This document shows, one piece after another, positions 1 to 7,576 of a DNA stretch of 19,923 nt. The number at the start of each line of letters is the position of its first letter. Positions within the stretch are counted from its first letter, which is position 1. Made by a program: the position numbers and the translations under genes. Origin of the DNA: a virus; the UHGV virus genome UHGV-0168719; one strand, given 5' to 3'. Below the pieces are notes generated by a model. The model worked only from the letters and a program-made list of their open reading frames with translations. It made no database searches and was not told the origin of the DNA.

Positions 1-104
1 AAAAAAATATTATATATAGGGAGATCAAATACAACGGTTTACTTGTTATGATGCAAACATTGGTTAGTTAGTGAGATACATCGCCATCAATTGGGTAACT
101 TTAC

Positions 105-320
105 CCGTGGAAAGTTAACGCTTTCTAACATTTACCCCGCGCAACGCCCCTGCCAGCGACAAGAGTCACAGGATCAGGCGGTATGGCGTATGGGTATTCG
201 AACCCTTTGGGCGACCAAGGGTTCGTGGAGCAGGGGGCTAGTGCTGTTCAATCTCATCCTTATGAGGGCGAACCATAGTGTTGGAGCAGACATATCGTTT
301 GCACACTATGGGCATAAGGA
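105..320 (+). ncRNA. Candidate structured non-coding leader, possibly a retron msr/msd-like ncRNA; boundaries approximate
   Basis: GC-rich island inside AT-rich DNA directly upstream of the HTH-RT operon. Hairpins seen: gaaag-ttaacg-ctttc (110-125); cgaaccctt / aagggttcg 9-bp stem (199-207 with 217-225) enclosing tgg-GCGA-cca (GNRA loop); ctcat-cctt-atgag (252-265); ccatagtgt / acactatgg 9-bp stem (273-281 with 302-310). Direct repeats tggagcag (226-233 and 283-290) and gggcga(a)cca. The overlapping 91..483 track ORF starts at TTG with no RBS. No a1/a2 inverted repeats or long msd stem found. Confidence 0.3.
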
Positions 321-327
321 GCAAATC

Positions 328-483
328 ATGAAGAATGATAAATTAACCAACGAACAGCAGGCGCAGAACAAGTCAAACCTGAAAAAGTGGGCTGGTTATG
401 TTTGGAAATTAATCAAATGGGGTATTAGACTGTTTGATTTAGCCACTCGAGCACTGGACTACTTTGAAGGGGGTGATGAGTAA
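328..483 (+). CDS. Small hypothetical protein (51 aa), first ORF of the RT operon
   Basis: ATG at 328 preceded by a consensus AAGGAG (316-321) with 6-nt spacer; product MKNDKLTNEQQAQNKSNLKKWAGYVWKLIKWGIRLFDLATRALDYFEGGDE has a polar N-terminus then a W/K-rich amphipathic segment. No family recognised. Confidence 0.45.
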   Translation: MKNDKLTNEQQAQNKSNLKKWAGYVWKLIKWGIRLFDLATRALDYFEGGDE

Positions 484-519
484 TGCGTCCTCCCTAGTTT
501 CAATAGCATGGAGTTGCCT

Positions 520-840
520 ATGTTACACAGAGCCCTTCGTTTAATAAGGCAATACCATAAAGAGTCATTGGTTGATTTATCAACATCTTTAGGTATTCCA
601 AAAGAAAAAATAGTAGAACTCGAAAGTGGGGTTTGGTCGCCTACAATTGATGTTTTACAGCGTTACGCCTCCCATTTCGATATGCCGGTATCTTCTTTAG
701 TATTTTTTTCAGAATCGTTAGGTACGCAGGGGCGTTTATCTAAGCGTTTCCGTTTAAATTTAGCTGGTAAAGTATTAGATGTTATTGAGTGGGCGAATAA
801 GAAAAATGAAAAGACGAATAAAACTCAAAATTTCCACTAA
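520..840 (+). CDS. XRE-family (Cro/C1-type) helix-turn-helix protein, about 106 aa
   Basis: LRLIRQYHKESLVDLSTSLGIPKEKIVELESGVWSPTIDVLQRYASHFDMPVSSL fits the XRE HTH pattern. GGAG (510-513) sits 6 nt before ATG 520; the track's ATG 508 has no RBS. Stop TAA 838-840. Confidence 0.75.
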   Translation: MLHRALRLIRQYHKESLVDLSTSLGIPKEKIVELESGVWSPTIDVLQRYASHFDMPVSSLVFFSESLGTQGRLSKRFRLNLAGKVLDVIEWANKKNEKTNKTQNFH

Positions 841-1756
841 AAATAAATCTTACGATATAATTGATTCGCCGTTTTATAAAATGAGAAGTAAAAGGAAATT
901 GGCTTCTTTATTGGGGGTTGATGTAGGGGATTTATCAACCTTAAAAAAAGATGAAGGCAATTATTCTATTTTTGAACAGTTATCTAAAAACGGAAAGCCA
1001 CGTAAGATACAAAAACCATTAGAAAAATTAGATGTGGTGCATACTCGTATTGCAAGTCTGCTATCGCGAATTACCTTGCCAGATTATCTACATTCTGGAA
1101 AGAAGGGATGTTCTAATGTTACTAATGCTAAAATCCACCTTAATAATGAAAGGTTGATGACAACCGACATCAGGGCTTTTTTTCCATCAACTACTAGAGA
1201 AATGATATTTTCATTCTTTTTTTCTGTTATGAAGATGTCATCTGATGTTGCGGATGTATTATCGTATATATGTACTTGCTATGGGCGTTTGCCTACAGGT
1301 AGCAGGATTAGTATGCCTCTTGCATATTTTGCAAATTCAAGAATGTTCGGAGAAATACACCAACTTTGTAATAAACTACACGTAAATATGTCTGTTTATG
1401 TTGATGATCTAACTTTTTCAGGACAAAACGTTAATAGACTATTTTGTTCAGTGATTCGCAAAATAATAAATAAGCATGGTCATGTGATGCATGCGGATAA
1501 AACAAAAATTTATAGTAGAGAAAAGCCTAAGTTGGTAACAGGTGTTATTGTTTTGGGCGGTTCTTTAAAAGTCAGGAATAAGCAGCATCTTTTAATGTCT
1601 CAAGAAATTGAATATTGGAAAATGATAAAGGATGCAGCGTGTGCAAGAGAAACTCATACTGCCAAAAAGTTATTTGGACGATTGCATTCTATGGGGGTAA
1701 TTGAACAACGTTATAGATCAAAGGTGCTTACATTAAAAGCAAGTACTGCACTTTAA
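806..1756 (+). CDS. Reverse transcriptase, retron-type (about 316 aa from ATG 806; alternative starts 779 or 881)
   Basis: RT motifs in the translation: F..K.G..R.I..P...L...H.RI (fingers), NAKIHLNNERLMTTDIRAFFPS, YVDD catalytic motif (nt 1397-1408), and the retron-characteristic VTG motif KPKLVTGVIVLGG (nt 1535-1543). Size fits retron RTs rather than the larger Abi-type RTs. Start 806 gives an N-terminal length like Ec86 and overlaps the HTH gene by 35 nt in another frame; 881 gives no overlap. Confidence 0.85.
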   Translation: MKRRIKLKISTKNKSYDIIDSPFYKMRSKRKLASLLGVDVGDLSTLKKDEGNYSIFEQLSKNGKPRKIQKPLEKLDVVHTRIASLLSRITLPDYLHSGKKGCSNVTNAKIHLNNERLMTTDIRAFFPSTTREMIFSFFFSVMKMSSDVADVLSYICTCYGRLPTGSRISMPLAYFANSRMFGEIHQLCNKLHVNMSVYVDDLTFSGQNVNRLFCSVIRKIINKHGHVMHADKTKIYSREKPKLVTGVIVLGGSLKVRNKQHLLMSQEIEYWKMIKDAACARETHTAKKLFGRLHSMGVIEQRYRSKVLTLKASTAL

Positions 1757-1807
1757 TACAGGTTCCTGTAAGTGATTATATTGTTCTTAAGATACTTACT
1801 GATGTTA

Positions 1808-1838
1808 TTTCCCCGTAGCCTTAATTTCTGCGGGGAAG
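1808..1838. terminator. Possible hairpin between the convergent RT and FRG genes
   Basis: tttccccg (1808-1815) pairs with cggggaag (1831-1838) across a 15-nt loop, inside the 108-bp convergent intergenic region; the loop is large and there is no clean U-tract. Confidence 0.25.
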
Positions 1839-1864
1839 TATGGAGATATTTTGGTTATGGAATG

Positions 1865-3229
1865 CTAATTTTTTAATGTGTATTTTTCTGTGATTAGTTT
1901 CATTGTTCTTTCCAATCCTAAATATACAGTGGCATCAGTAATATTGAGCACGGCAAGTTCTTTTAAAATTTTCTTTTTGTCTCTGATGTTTATTTTTTCT
2001 GTCTTAAAGTTGTATGGTGAATTATCTGCCTGATCGTTGGATATCTCAGGAAAAACGGCGTTATTACCGAATAATAAAAAGGCACCGGATTGAGATGATA
2101 TTCTTTCATTATTTATCCTGCTTTTTACAAAAATTATCTTTTCCAAATCATCTGGATTTATTATGCTTTGAAAATATGGTTTTTCATGCTTTATGGATTC
2201 TAAGAGTTTAAGGCAAGCATGAGAGTTGTTAAAATCATTATTTCTTTCTTCGAAAGAAAGCTTGTCTTTCATGTCTTTTGATAGCATGCATAAATTAGAT
2301 ATGCAACTGACAGTGTCGGAATCGAAAAATTTAATGTTCTCTCTGTGTGTTTTAAATATTATTACTTGACCATCGATATCGTTTTTGTCGGAATTTATAC
2401 TACTGCATGCAAAATAAAGTGCAATTAATGGATTTGATGTGATGTCAAGTAAGCGAGTAGGTATGCCATAATGTTGCATTCTTACAAGTTTATCAAGCAT
2501 TGATGTATCATCAATGAATTCTGAGGGTCTTGCGCTCAATGCTTCTTTAACAAGGTTGATTTCATTATGTAGAAATTTATAGTTCCCATTTTCATATTTT
2601 CTGAAAAGAGATGGTGCAAGTTCATAAGATGAATCTGAATGACCCCTGTAAAAAATCTCCTCATCCATATCTGCTGTTATATGGAGAACTTTTTCAATAA
2701 ATTCTTGTAAACTATTTACGGTTAATAATGTGCTATCTTCGTCTGGGAGAGGCGCTGGACTGCTATCCACTTGTGCATTTTGGTTAATACCAAATGTCTT
2801 AAGGATATCATCTATATTTTTGTCTTTTATGGCCCAGTGTGTTCTTTTAAGGCCATAAGTTCCGAGTTCTAAACTGCTTTCAACACTTTTGGCGTCTGAT
2901 ATTTTGATTTCATTGTGTGTATGGGTGATTGCAAATTGGAAGTTGATTTCTTTTCCCTTAATGTGAATATTTGAAATTCTTCCAATTCGTATGTCGACAT
3001 AATAAGGTTTTGCTCCCTCTATTTGATAAGCTTCACTCATGAATATTGTTGGGAGTTTTTCAAGATAAGATAGTACATTGCTGCTTAATGGGGATAGTTT
3101 TTTGCGAATACCATCGGAGGTGTTTTCAAACATTCGTGATAAAAGAAATGAGAATTCTCCATTATTTTGGCTGAATGGTTTCCAGTGGTCGTAGTGGTCG
3201 GGAAAACCACCCATAATTAAATTAATCAT
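1865..3229 (-). CDS. FRG-domain protein (454 aa) with an unassigned ~190-aa N-terminal region
   Basis: Central region carries the FRG-domain signature: EEIFYRGHSDSSYELAPSLFRK ... LVRMQHYGIPTRLLDITSNPLIALYFAC ... ERISSQSGAFLLFG (roughly nt 2070-2655). AT-rich gene convergent with the RT operon; ATG at 3229. Confidence 0.8.
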   Translation of the reverse strand: MINLIMGGFPDHYDHWKPFSQNNGEFSFLLSRMFENTSDGIRKKLSPLSSNVLSYLEKLPTIFMSEAYQIEGAKPYYVDIRIGRISNIHIKGKEINFQFAITHTHNEIKISDAKSVESSLELGTYGLKRTHWAIKDKNIDDILKTFGINQNAQVDSSPAPLPDEDSTLLTVNSLQEFIEKVLHITADMDEEIFYRGHSDSSYELAPSLFRKYENGNYKFLHNEINLVKEALSARPSEFIDDTSMLDKLVRMQHYGIPTRLLDITSNPLIALYFACSSINSDKNDIDGQVIIFKTHRENIKFFDSDTVSCISNLCMLSKDMKDKLSFEERNNDFNNSHACLKLLESIKHEKPYFQSIINPDDLEKIIFVKSRINNERISSQSGAFLLFGNNAVFPEISNDQADNSPYNFKTEKINIRDKKKILKELAVLNITDATVYLGLERTMKLITEKYTLKN

Positions 3230-3512
3230 AATTACCTGTTCATCTGATGTAGGTGTAGGAATGCTTGTTGTTTGTTATGGTAATGTTAACGCTTGTTGGT
3301 GGCAACTACTATTACTACTTGCTGTTAGAGCTAAGACATTTTTTGATTGCTTGTAATGATAGCGAGCCTTTAACTAACTGGGATTTTGAAAAAATAAATG
3401 AATTGTCAATTTCCTGAGATTTTTATTACTGCATTCATTAAGTGCATTTTTTTGCGTGTGTTAGTTGCCATGCTTTTCCATGTTTGTTACCAGTGTTGAT
3501 GCGGTTACTGTG

Positions 3513-3534
3513 TTTTAATGCAATTGCATTAAAA
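3513..3534. repeat. Perfect 22-bp palindrome ttttaatgcaa/ttgcattaaaa, 19 bp left of cos
   Basis: Exact dyad read directly from the sequence; function unknown (packaging-site element, protein-binding site or hairpin). Confidence 0.5.
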
Positions 3535-3553
3535 GCGCCCTATGAAGCGGGCG

Positions 3554-3572
3554 GGCGAGGCGGGGAAAGCAC
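3554..3572. other. cos cohesive-end site (P2-type 19-nt sequence ggcgaggcggggaaagcac)
   Basis: Matches the P2 cohesive-end sequence as I remember it, and the flanking sequence up to the end of Q also resembles the left end of the P2 genome. From memory, not a database check. Confidence 0.6.
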
Positions 3573-3712
3573 TGCGCGCTGGCGGTGGTGCGGATTTTAT
3601 TTTTTCAGCGTCTGAGCGCGTCGTGAAGGCGTTTACTTGGCCTGCTAGGGCGTTGGTGTGTCTGCGGGGTGTTTTGTGCGGTGGTGAGCGTGTGAGGGCG
3701 TGATGACGGGGT

Positions 3713-3736
3713 GTAAAAAAGCCGCCCGCAGGCGGC
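3713..3736 (-). terminator. Rho-independent terminator downstream of Q (end of the P-Q operon)
   Basis: On the minus strand: gccgcc-tgcg-ggcggc hairpin followed by TTTTTT, beginning 6 nt after the Q stop codon (3742-3744). Confidence 0.65.
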
Positions 3737-3741
3737 GATGT

Positions 3742-4776
3742 TCAGCCGTTGTCAGTGTCCAGTGAGTAGTTTTTAAAGCGGATGACCTCCTGGCCGAGCC
3801 AGCCGTTTATTTCCCGAATCCTGTCCTGTAACGGGATTAGCTCATTGCGGACAAAGACCTTTGCCACTTTCTCAATATCACCCAGTGACCCGACGTTCTC
3901 CGGCTTGCCACCCATCAACTGAAAGGGGATGCGGTGTGCGTCCAGCAGGTCAGCGGCGCTGGCTTTTTTGATATTAAAAAAATCGTCCTTCGTCGCCACT
4001 TCACTGAGGGGGATAATTTTAATGCCGTCGGCTTTCCCCTGCGGGGCATAGAGAAACAGGTTTTTAAAGTTGTTGCGGCCTTTCGACTTCACCATGTTTT
4101 CGCGAAGCATTTCGATATCGTTGCGATCCTGCACGGCATCGGTGACGTACATGATGTATCCGGCATGTGCGCCATTTTCGTAATACTTGCGGCGGAACAG
4201 CGTGGCCGACTCATTCAGCCAGGCAGAGTTAAGGGCGCTGAGATATTCCGGCAGGCCGTACAGCTCCTGATTAATATCAGGCTCCAGCAGGTGAAACACG
4301 GAGCCGGGCGCGAAGGCTGTCGGCTCGTTGAAGGACGGCACCCACCAGTAAACATCCTCCTCCACGCCACGACGGGTATATTTTGCCGGTGAGGTTTCCA
4401 GTCTGATGACCTTACCGGTGGTGCTGTAACGCTTTTCCAGAAACGCATTACCGAACACCAGAAAATCCAGCACAAAGCGGCTGAAATCCTGTTGTGAAAG
4501 CCACGGATGCGGGATAAATGTCGAGGCCAGAATATTACGTTTGACGTAAATCGGTGAGCTGTGATGCACGGCAGCACGCAGGCTTTTTGCCAGACCGGTA
4601 AAGCTGACCGGCGGCTCATACCATCTGCCGTTACTGATGCACTCGACGTAATCCAGAATGTCACGGCGGTCGAGTACCGGCACCGGCTCACCAAAGGTGA
4701 ATGCCTCCATTTTCGGGGCGCTGGCGGTCATTTTTTTTGCCGCAGGTTGCGGTGTTTTCCCTTTTTTCTTGCTCAT
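3742..4776 (-). CDS. Q: Portal protein
   Basis: 344-aa translation (MSKKKGKTPQPAAKKMTASAPKMEAFTFGEPVPVLDRRDILDYVECISNGRWYEPP...) matches the P2 Q protein as remembered; the start ATG overlaps the P stop as ATGA. Confidence 0.95.
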   Translation of the reverse strand: MSKKKGKTPQPAAKKMTASAPKMEAFTFGEPVPVLDRRDILDYVECISNGRWYEPPVSFTGLAKSLRAAVHHSSPIYVKRNILASTFIPHPWLSQQDFSRFVLDFLVFGNAFLEKRYSTTGKVIRLETSPAKYTRRGVEEDVYWWVPSFNEPTAFAPGSVFHLLEPDINQELYGLPEYLSALNSAWLNESATLFRRKYYENGAHAGYIMYVTDAVQDRNDIEMLRENMVKSKGRNNFKNLFLYAPQGKADGIKIIPLSEVATKDDFFNIKKASAADLLDAHRIPFQLMGGKPENVGSLGDIEKVAKVFVRNELIPLQDRIREINGWLGQEVIRFKNYSLDTDNG

Positions 4777-6548: not shown

Positions 6549-6721
6549 GAATACCTCGCCGTGATGAATACACGGCAAGGCTACTGAGTCGCGCCCTGCG
6601 ATTCGCTAAGGTGCTGTTGTGTCAGTGATAAGCCATCCGGGACTGATGGCGGAGGATGCGCATCGTCGGGAAACTGATGCCGACATGTGACTCCTCTAAT
6701 CACTATTCAGGACTCCTGACA
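6549..6721. promoter_or_regulatory. Divergent late-promoter region between P and O
   Basis: Positional: 173-bp intergenic region between divergent late operons, as in P2. No perfect TGT-N12-ACA dyad was found here, so precise elements are not assigned. Confidence 0.4.
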
Positions 6722-7576
6722 ATGGCAAAAAAAGTCTCAAAATTCTTTCGTATCGGCGTTGAGGGTGACACCTGTGACGGGCGTGTCATCAGTGCGCAGG
6801 ATATTCAGGAAATGGCCGAAACCTTTGACCCGCGTGTCTATGGTTGCCGTATTAACCTGGAACATCTGCGCGGCATCCTGCCTGACGGTATTTTTAAACG
6901 TTATGGTGATGTGGCCGAACTGAAGGCCGAAAAGATTGACGATGATTCGGCGCTGAAAGGCAAATGGGCGCTGTTTGCGAAAATCACCCCGACCGATGAC
7001 CTTATCGCGATGAACAAGGCCGCGCAGAAGGTCTATACCTCAATGGAAATTCAGCCGAACTTTGCCAACACCGGCAAATGTTATCTGGTGGGGCTGGCCG
7101 TCACCGATGACCCGGCAAGCCTCGGCACGGAATACCTGGAATTCTGCCGCACGGCAAAACACAACCCTCTGAACCGCTTCAAATTAAGCCCTGAAAACCT
7201 GATTTCAGTGGCAACGCCTGTTGAGCTGGAATTTGAAGACCTGCCTGAAACCGTGTTCACCGCCCTGACTGAAAAGGTGAAATCCATTTTTGGCCGCAAA
7301 CAGGCCAGCGATGACGCCCGTCTGAATGATGTGCATGAAGCGGTGACCGCTGTTGCTGAACATGTGCAGGAAAAACTGAGCGCCACTGAGCAGCGCCTCG
7401 CAGAGATGGAAACCGCCTTTTCCGCACTTAAGCAGGATGTAGCTGACAGGGCGGATGAAACCAGCCAGGCATTCACCCGCCTGAAAAACAGCCTCGACCA
7501 CACCGAAAGTCTGACCCAGCAGCGCCGCAGCAAGGCCACCGGCGGTGGCGGTGATGCCCTGATGACGAACTGCTGA
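6722..7576 (+). CDS. O: Capsid scaffolding protein, 284 aa
   Basis: Translation from MAKKVSKFFRIGVEGDTCDGRVISAQDIQEMAETFDPRVYG matches P2 O; length exactly 284 aa from ATG 6722 (the track ORF starts upstream at 6656). Confidence 0.92.
   Translation: MAKKVSKFFRIGVEGDTCDGRVISAQDIQEMAETFDPRVYGCRINLEHLRGILPDGIFKRYGDVAELKAEKIDDDSALKGKWALFAKITPTDDLIAMNKAAQKVYTSMEIQPNFANTGKCYLVGLAVTDDPASLGTEYLEFCRTAKHNPLNRFKLSPENLISVATPVELEFEDLPETVFTALTEKVKSIFGRKQASDDARLNDVHEAVTAVAEHVQEKLSATEQRLAEMETAFSALKQDVADRADETSQAFTRLKNSLDHTESLTQQRRSKATGGGGDALMTNC

Follow-up and report, generated by a model that had tools for sequence, protein, structure and literature searches.

The window analysed here, i.e. the whole 19,923-nt stretch of the viral genome UHGV-0168719, carries between bases 57 and 1756 what is, with good confidence, a complete Type VI retron of the 'Large' lineage to which Retron-Vpa2 belongs, located in the hotspot of a P2-like prophage and independent of the FRG-domain gene beside it. 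The retron comprises a structured leader RNA, an open reading frame (ORF) for a small protein (SP) of 51 amino acids (aa), a helix-turn-helix (HTH) gene and a reverse transcriptase (RT) gene. This kind of system is already known: the lineage of the Type VI retron has been characterised, and the prophage hotspot has been described. An earlier description of the locus from its letters alone (the original prediction) had placed the small ORF, the leader and the FRG gene outside the described systems; the former two correspond to the SP toxin and the hybrid RNA of Type VI retrons (bioRxiv 10.1101/2025.10.22.683967, 10.64898/2026.04.27.721009), and the FRG gene matches the stand-alone candidate PDC-S15 of PADLOC.

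Reverse transcriptase and HTH gene

The RT was assigned to retron Type VI, which is a branch of retron RT clade 3, by PADLOC (model RT_VI, E 1.1e-105, 351 bits; next type 5e-45, 152 bits), and the other PADLOC matches listed for it are likewise retron RT models. The YVDD and VTG motifs noticed earlier are both present in the translation (SVYVDDLTFSG and PKLVTGVIV) and are invariant, or nearly so, among 27 homologs. The placement of the RT, a check proposed with the original prediction, is based on hidden Markov model (HMM) scores and on the labels of its relatives in the published tree: the E. coli relatives, at 81% and 62% identity, carry the label 'Large' Type VI there, WP_000746343.1 and WP_001461245.1 being members of this clade. 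The identity to the Vpa2 RT is 54%. Pfam HMM searches, also proposed, returned matches to RVT_1, HTH_3 and FRG. The RT starts at ATG 806; its homologs are all 316 aa long, and therefore the 35-nt overlap of the HTH and RT genes (806-840), which had been regarded as possible, is real.

The HTH gene is of the XRE type as predicted (HTH_3; HTH_VI, 7.2e-30), with its start at ATG 520 (kept in homologs; GGAG at 510-513) and not at 508. Its product is 50% identical to the Vpa2 HTH protein, including Arg7, and in 53 of the 80 species-level Type VI loci an HTH gene lies directly upstream of its RT partner or overlaps it. Assignment to the HTH-associated retron class, as originally proposed, is borne out by the RT_VI and HTH_VI scores; this class is Type VI of Mestre et al. 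2020. Of 158 Type VI entries, about 78% have a gene for a Cro/C1-type HTH protein, mostly upstream of or overlapping the RT, and about 27% of the HTH-bearing entries add an SP of a recognised cluster to give the canonical SP-HTH-RT order (bioRxiv 10.1101/2025.10.22.683967, 10.64898/2026.04.27.721009). At least four alleles of the retron family are found in E. coli, with 100%, ~84%, ~78% and ~67% DNA identity to the window.

Structured leader and hybrid RNA

In Retron-Vpa2, one 'hybrid RNA' (hyRNA) serves both as template in reverse transcription and as carrier of a translationally repressed SP toxin gene; it has three arms and is closed by a1/a2-like repeats, and its long stem-loop maps to a 63-nt RT-dependent DNA signal (bioRxiv 10.1101/2025.10.22.683967). 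The hyRNAs of Type VI are described with 'conserved 7-nt direct repeats', one in the template loop and one in the riboregulator loop (bioRxiv 10.1101/2025.10.22.683967). The region of about 440 nt at ~88-516 of the window has the fold and the conserved motifs of this published hybrid RNA (Table 1). Bases 60-520 fold better than shuffled sequence (z = -4.85), in agreement with the structured leader of the original prediction; its further claim, that canonical a1/a2 repeats and a long msd stem are lacking, was not upheld, as there are a 60-nt stem-loop (SL-C) and a 12/13-nt inverted repeat (226-237/490-502) that brackets the small ORF and pairs in the same way in the Vpa2 fold.

Table 1. Features of the retron, its RNA and its surroundings in the window (SD, Shine-Dalgarno sequence)
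Feature	Position	Strand	Evidence or remarks
Conserved block upstream of the structured RNA	57-92	+	near-invariant in 7 related loci, non-P2 contexts included
SL-A, 5-bp hairpin GGGUA/UACCC	93-106	+	2 pairs with compensatory changes among 7 loci; same place in Vpa2 fold
SL-B, hairpin GGAAAGU/GCUUUCU	109-126	+	7-locus consensus fold; closing pair U-G, U-A, C-G; also in Vpa2
SL-C, long 60-nt stem-loop, variable tip	135-194	+	basal pairs conserved; compensatory change at 148/180
SL-D, 9-bp hairpin, loop UGGGCGACC	199-225	+	folds in 19/19 loci tested, stem sequences differing
Direct repeat copy 1, GGGCGAC, in SL-D loop	209-215	+	invariant motif in 17-locus alignment
5' arm of long-range inverted repeat	226-237	+	12 pairs with 490-502 in consensus fold; A-U/G-U variation only
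UGCUGUUC, pairing with GAACAGCA (352-359) inside the SP coding sequence	242-249	+	fold; invariant; equivalent helix in Vpa2 fold
Riboregulator	257-320	+	outer stem 257-264/313-320, inner hairpin 273-311, internal loop with repeat copy 2
Direct repeat copy 2, GGGCGAA, in riboregulator internal loop	266-272	+	GGCGA core invariant in 17 loci
SP, 51-aa small protein, predicted toxin/effector	328-483	+	SD AAGGAG at 316-321
3' arm of long-range inverted repeat, CUCCCU-A-GUUUCA, just past the SP stop codon	490-502	+	consensus fold, motif
Cro/C1-type HTH protein, 106 aa	520-840	+	PADLOC HTH_VI 7.2e-30; HTH_3 Pfam
Retron RT, 316 aa, YVDD and VTG	806-1756	+	PADLOC RT_VI, RVT_1
FRG-domain protein, 454 aa, single-gene defence candidate PDC-S15	1865-3229	-	PADLOC, Pfam
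P2 cos cohesive-end 19-mer	3554-3572	+	exact match (0.01 chance matches expected)
P2 portal gene gpQ, right hotspot border	3742-4776	-	Phage_portal Pfam match; RefSeq annotation

The conserved block at the 5' side is likely a promoter/operator (possibly the HTH operator) and the transcript 5' end; a sigma-70 scan gave no convincing hexamers upstream of the RNA, with counts not above those of shuffled sequence. Bases 88-92 may weakly pair with 512-516. SL-C is the positional counterpart of the Vpa2 long stem-loop, and its apex differs in sequence and length among the loci (17 nt longer in locus L007); by this analogy, it would form the main part of the reverse-transcription template (msd). SL-D, for which all 9 pairs changed on both sides and 99.5% of the cells are paired in the covariance-model alignment, is the probable 3' end of the template and hence would form the 5' stem-loop of the multicopy single-stranded DNA (msDNA). 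Within the riboregulator's outer stem, an anti-SD sequence is paired to the SP ribosome-binding site, and a further (third) arm of the fold lies within the SP coding sequence. The motif CYCCCUNGUUUC is found 6-8 nt past the SP stop in 15 of 34 loci.

The comparative support for this RNA comes from several alignments. The consensus fold of seven related loci comprises 120 pairs, 19 of these with compensatory changes. Two GGGCGA motifs are the sole invariant columns of a 17-locus alignment; both copies are carried by 17 of 34 loci, at a spacing of 56-60 nt there, and in Vpa2 the repeat reads GGACGAA at both places. When the 17 divergent leaders were aligned with MAFFT and folded with RNAalifold, the structure was not recovered because of misalignment, and this alignment was replaced by per-sequence folds and covariance-model alignment. 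The GGGCGA motif is placed inside or at the edge of the SL-D loop in each of the single-locus folds (n=19), the ribosome-binding site is buried in the riboregulator outer stem in 18 of 19 independently folded loci, Vpa2 included, and all of the 23 modelled pairs of the riboregulator covary.

A covariance model (R1) was built from the window's group for window bases 196-335. It matches 25 loci, each time just 5' of the SP start, and it finds the Vpa2 leader with 66.8 bits (E 4e-14). In the alignment fitted to R1, 97% of the cells are paired, compared with 28-52% in slid-partner controls, and 32 of 32 modelled pairs show changes on both sides. Because R1 finds the Vpa2 leader and the pairs covary, the leader belongs to the Vpa2 RNA family; the elements of the Vpa2 RNA fold also stand in the same order as those of the window RNA. 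An Rfam scan of bases 1-4000 (E up to 10) returned four chance-level matches only, all within the FRG gene and none to a retron msr family; Rfam may hold no Type VI family.

Other repeats were also observed in the region. The 8-nt direct repeat TGGAGCAG (226-233 and 282-289) was considered as the published repeat and rejected for GGGCGA, because its second copy is absent in loci L005, L007 and L019. Its first copy lies at the start of the long-range repeat arm and its second copy in the riboregulator inner hairpin, the latter being present only in four aligned E. coli P2-hotspot alleles (window, L002, L003 and L004). A third GGGCGA copy is located at window 791-797, 15 nt before the RT start codon, and is also found in Vpa2, L007, L010 and L039, and is absent from the closest E. 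coli alleles; it was rejected as an RNA signal, being present in only 5 of 14 loci and tracking Trp-Ala codons of the HTH gene. Perfect inverted repeats (143-153 with 726-736, 11 nt; 210-218 with 633-641, 9 nt) connect the stem of the template and the loop of SL-D with sites in the HTH coding sequence; for 11-nt inverted repeats, ~0.1 are expected by chance in 900 nt.

Small protein

The 51-aa ORF and its ribosome-binding site stand as originally described. The SP is 55-96% identical in six related loci, and a small ORF, mostly of 47-65 aa (maximum 80 aa), precedes the HTH gene in nearly all HTH-bearing loci. These small ORFs have a common polar, basic and Trp-rich profile and often end in GGD or GGE, like the Vpa2 SP; the pairwise similarity of the window SP to the Vpa2 SP is marginal (E 0.012). 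RT-dependent msDNA and SP-dependent toxicity have been demonstrated for Vpa2 and Sen3 only (bioRxiv 10.1101/2025.10.22.683967; 10.64898/2026.04.27.721009).

Prophage context and insertion slot

Window bases 1-3700 show 99-100% identity to 60 complete E. coli genomes. In one E. coli genome that is identical over these bases, the left neighbour of the island is the P2 replication endonuclease gene gpA; rightwards of the island, cos, the portal gene and the terminase gene follow. The island, with the 51-aa ORF, the HTH gene, the RT gene and the convergent 454-aa FRG gene, has a GC content of ~33% compared with ~55% in the phage genes, and the AT-rich stretch stops near base 3450. The 19-mer used for matching is taken to be the P2 cos sequence. 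The window belongs to a P2-like prophage of E. coli, and the retron is cargo of its gpA-gpQ hotspot; the AT-rich insertion left of cos, in the tin/old slot, was thus correctly recognised from the sequence.

According to the text of a survey of the P2 hotspot, P2 itself carries old and tin at gpA-gpQ, and 1,650 gene arrangements were counted at this locus, retrons included; FRG is not mentioned in that text, tables aside (Rousset et al. 2022, PMC9122126). The same prophage was also seen in strain NMBU-W13E19 (NZ_CP043406.1, 9055-12543), where the capsid scaffold gene gpO is split by the IS21-family element ISEc12. In the window, the gpO region (6656-7576) is uninterrupted and contains a 306-aa ORF, and therefore the window is from a different carrier.

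The neighbouring FRG gene

The FRG protein is matched by PADLOC PDC-S15 (7.3e-98) and Pfam FRG (2e-21), and its gene converges on the RT gene across a spacer of 108 nt (1757-1864), exactly as originally stated. The name PDC-S15 is found in two papers only, as an annotation in both. In the literature, FRG is assigned to the ADP-ribosyltransferase superfamily and predicted to act as an NADase effector; more than 3,387 family members are present among the Proteobacteria. Some of the invariant residues of the FRG domain are in its FYRGH block (residues 193-197). A sequence search against the PDB gave no match, the leads being from fold comparison only; as modelled, the protein probably consists of a nucleic-acid or modified-base-reader-like (PUA-like) N-domain and an NAD-using ADP-ribosyltransferase-like effector. 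At locus L113, a 301-aa protein (2125-3030, plus strand) is encoded beside another retron variant; its N-domain matches that of the window FRG protein (E 6e-15) and is fused to a CAP12/Pycsar-type TIR domain (PF10137, 1.8e-37), which looks like an effector swap behind a common N-terminal domain.

The FRG gene is a neighbour of the retron and a separate candidate defence gene; it is not a demonstrated partner because it is absent from most Type VI loci and its full-length homologs occur alone. Among 100 E. coli genomes with the retron family, the FRG gene is found only in the 60 with the identical cassette, and 40 are without it; the retron alleles of ~84%, 78% and 67% DNA identity are followed instead by genes of 145, 266 or 465 aa. 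Within 6 kb, there is one weak FRG match among the 80 species-level Type VI loci; of the joint conservation that was to be checked, the part concerning the leader and the small ORF with HTH and RT held, and the part concerning FRG did not. Full-length FRG homologs (45-66% identity) without an RT were found in E. coli, Enterobacter and Klebsiella, at sites that include a lambdoid prophage, another mobile island, the Enterobacter chromosome, the tail-fibre hotspot of Klebsiella P2-like prophages, and a gpA-gpQ slot by DinI.

The hotspot arrangements are mosaic. The arrangements of the P2 slot with this retron include FRG in two of six cases and comprise retron and FRG; retron, FRG and a 144-aa gene; retron and a 144-aa gene (with or without an 89-aa ORF); retron and a 266-aa gene; and retron with a 143-aa and a 301-aa gene. 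The ~144-aa gene (L002, 5322-5759, minus strand; L100, 4487-4921, plus strand; also L003 and L109-L117) shows 85-93% identity across loci. In most P2-slot variants it comes after the retron, in Kosakonia after FRG; the window lacks it, and no Pfam or PADLOC match was obtained for it. A 67%-identical retron copy is located in a non-P2 defence island near yeiP in E. coli C5 (L006; NZ_CP010122.1, 2218500-2232000), together with a 465-aa gene, a recombinase, a 274-aa PDC-S15 FRG gene convergent with a Drt8 reverse transcriptase, and a PDC-M01B HNH endonuclease beside an annotated AAA ATPase. A three-way link through 465-aa genes, one by FRG in Klebsiella and one by the retron in E. coli C5, was rejected, the two genes being unrelated.

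Proposed mode of action

By analogy with Vpa2, the RT, the HTH protein and the RNA would form a complex in the resting state, with little DNA made and the SP untranslated. Upon infection, through phage recombination proteins or loss of RecBCD activity, msDNA copied from ~135-225 would accumulate, and the loop of its 5' hairpin (complement of GGGCGAC) would pair with GGGCGAA of the riboregulator and free the ribosome-binding site. The hydrophobic 51-aa SP could then be translated, by which the cell would be stopped and the infection aborted.

Alternative explanations

That the RT is an Abi/DRT-type or group II intron-type enzyme, with an incidental leader structure, is scarcely credible. The RVT_1 match is barely above threshold (32.2 vs 29.6 bits) and Rfam has no matching family for the leader, but the high RT_VI score, the retron RT models among the remaining listed matches, the VTG motif, the NCBIfam score of just 17 bits for Drt3a, and the membership of the leader in the RNA family of the characterised Vpa2 RNA all oppose it. 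Deserving of more weight, though still unlikely, is a Type VI retron that works like Sen3, i.e. with constitutive SP and DNA, with the HTH protein as a protein antitoxin and with loss of RecBCD freeing the toxin, so that the RNA would not be a switch. The Sen3 mode has been published (bioRxiv 10.64898/2026.04.27.721009), in Vpa2 also the HTH mutation (Arg7) is toxic and the HTH protein binds the RT (bioRxiv 10.1101/2025.10.22.683967), and the HTH protein is the most conserved partner by its identity to Vpa2 and its occurrence among the 80 loci. Sen3 belongs, however, to the cl2075 lineage and has a 79-aa SP, whereas the relatives of the window RT are in the 'Large' lineage with Vpa2; for Vpa2 and the E. 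coli Type VI Retron-Eco12, msDNA was not detectable at rest (bioRxiv 10.1101/2025.10.22.683967). The window retains the SD-sequestering riboregulator and both repeat motifs, and since the riboregulator is conserved, the Vpa2 mode is favoured over the Sen3 mode.

That the FRG protein functions in the retron as a fourth component or as its second effector, e.g. with its N-domain sensing msDNA, is considered very unlikely. It would fit that all 60 E. coli genomes with this retron allele carry this FRG allele, that the pair recurs, again convergent, in a Kosakonia P2-like prophage (RT 78%, FRG 64%), that the L113 paralog with the same N-domain and a TIR domain adjoins another retron variant, and that E. 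coli C5 has a shorter FRG gene at a distance of 3 kb from its retron. The C5 gene, however, adjoins Drt8 in a dense defence island; the genes in the window converge and hence are not co-transcribed; same-slot retron variants at 78-82% RT identity carry a 144-aa or 266-aa gene instead; at 79 of the 80 species-level Type VI loci, no FRG gene lies within 6 kb; the nearest FRG relatives otherwise (63-66%) have no retron with them, and one of these occupies the same P2 slot; the FRG family is large; and the cloned Vpa2 and Sen3 operons function without FRG (bioRxiv 10.1101/2025.10.22.683967; 10.64898/2026.04.27.721009). A two-layer system in the P2 slot, coupled through a PUA-like N-domain that senses retron single-stranded DNA or a shared phage cue, is correspondingly improbable.

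Some points weigh against the reading favoured here, a Vpa2-like Type VI retron with an independent FRG neighbour. A purely accidental neighbour does not predict the Kosakonia pair, and as the RT-FRG spacers of the window and Kosakonia are unalignable, one or two origins of the pairing are indistinguishable. The pairing counts of the R1 alignment are inflated by its fitting to the model, and the helices 226-237/490-502 and 242-249/352-359 never vary and hence have no covariation support, so that folding energy and analogy alone suggest these two long-range helices. The template span of ~135-225, and with it the ends of the msDNA, is approximate. As Sen3 is constitutive and post-translationally controlled, the Vpa2 mechanism need not hold across Type VI, and the phenotype data stem from Vpa2, Sen3 and Eco12.

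Significance

The analysis closes off a misleading trail: a small ORF, an unusual leader and the absence of classical a1/a2 repeats are hallmarks of Type VI as described in 2025-2026. The window represents a naturally occurring E. coli allele within its own P2 prophage, for a system studied mainly with a Vibrio operon. With the RNA elements mapped to the base, compensatory mutations made in the native host could address the putative msDNA-to-riboregulator switch (209-215, 266-272). The neighbouring FRG gene provides a testable hypothesis for an unvalidated candidate family, i.e. a modified-base-reader-like domain with an ADP-ribosyltransferase-like or TIR effector.

Comparison with known systems

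The cassette of the window occupies the same gpA-cos-gpQ position as the old/tin cargo of P2. Its FRG protein matches the HMMs of PDC-S15, a PADLOC candidate single-gene system with an FRG domain (PF08867). Anti-phage defence has been reported for the Type VI retrons Vpa2, Sen3 and Eco12 (bioRxiv 10.1101/2025.10.22.683967; 10.64898/2026.04.27.721009), in the case of Eco12 against lambda-vir (bioRxiv 10.1101/2025.10.22.683967).

Retron-Eco12 is likened to the window by its description, i.e. E. coli origin, Type VI and Vpa2-related. The Eco12 sequence could not be located in the main text and supplements of the two Type VI preprints; the window may be Eco12 itself or a 62-82% relative. The supplements of both preprints include two related RTs in the tree; the window RT (WP_023148839.1), HTH protein (WP_016239054.1) and SP (WP_001754918.1) are not listed in them.

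Retron-Sen3 (Salmonella, cl2075 lineage; Garcia-Rodriguez et al.) shares with the window the SP-HTH-RT order with HTH overlapping RT, a short hairpin directly upstream of the main structured RNA, an SP ribosome-binding site in a stem, and a long-range repeat that flanks the SP ORF. It differs in its RT subclade and SP cluster, in the N-terminal extension of its 79-aa SP, and in its constitutive DNA and SP under post-translational control (bioRxiv 10.64898/2026.04.27.721009).

Retron-Vpa2 (Vibrio parahaemolyticus, 'Large' lineage; Zhang et al.), recognised as our locus L088, which encodes a small protein identical to the published Vpa2 SP, matches the window in the order structured RNA, SP, HTH and RT. 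It also has the same order of RNA elements, with the SD buried in a stem and the SP ORF enclosed by inverted repeats. In both systems, a pair of conserved loop repeats lies at about -120 and -62 relative to the start of the SP, and the SP, ~50 aa long, ends in GGD. The two differ in the repeat (GGACGAA in Vpa2, GGGCGA in the window), in their SPs, which are barely alignable, and in location: Retron-Vpa2 is found at a chromosomal site by hipA and rpoD, whereas the window copy resides in the hotspot of an E. coli P2-like prophage.

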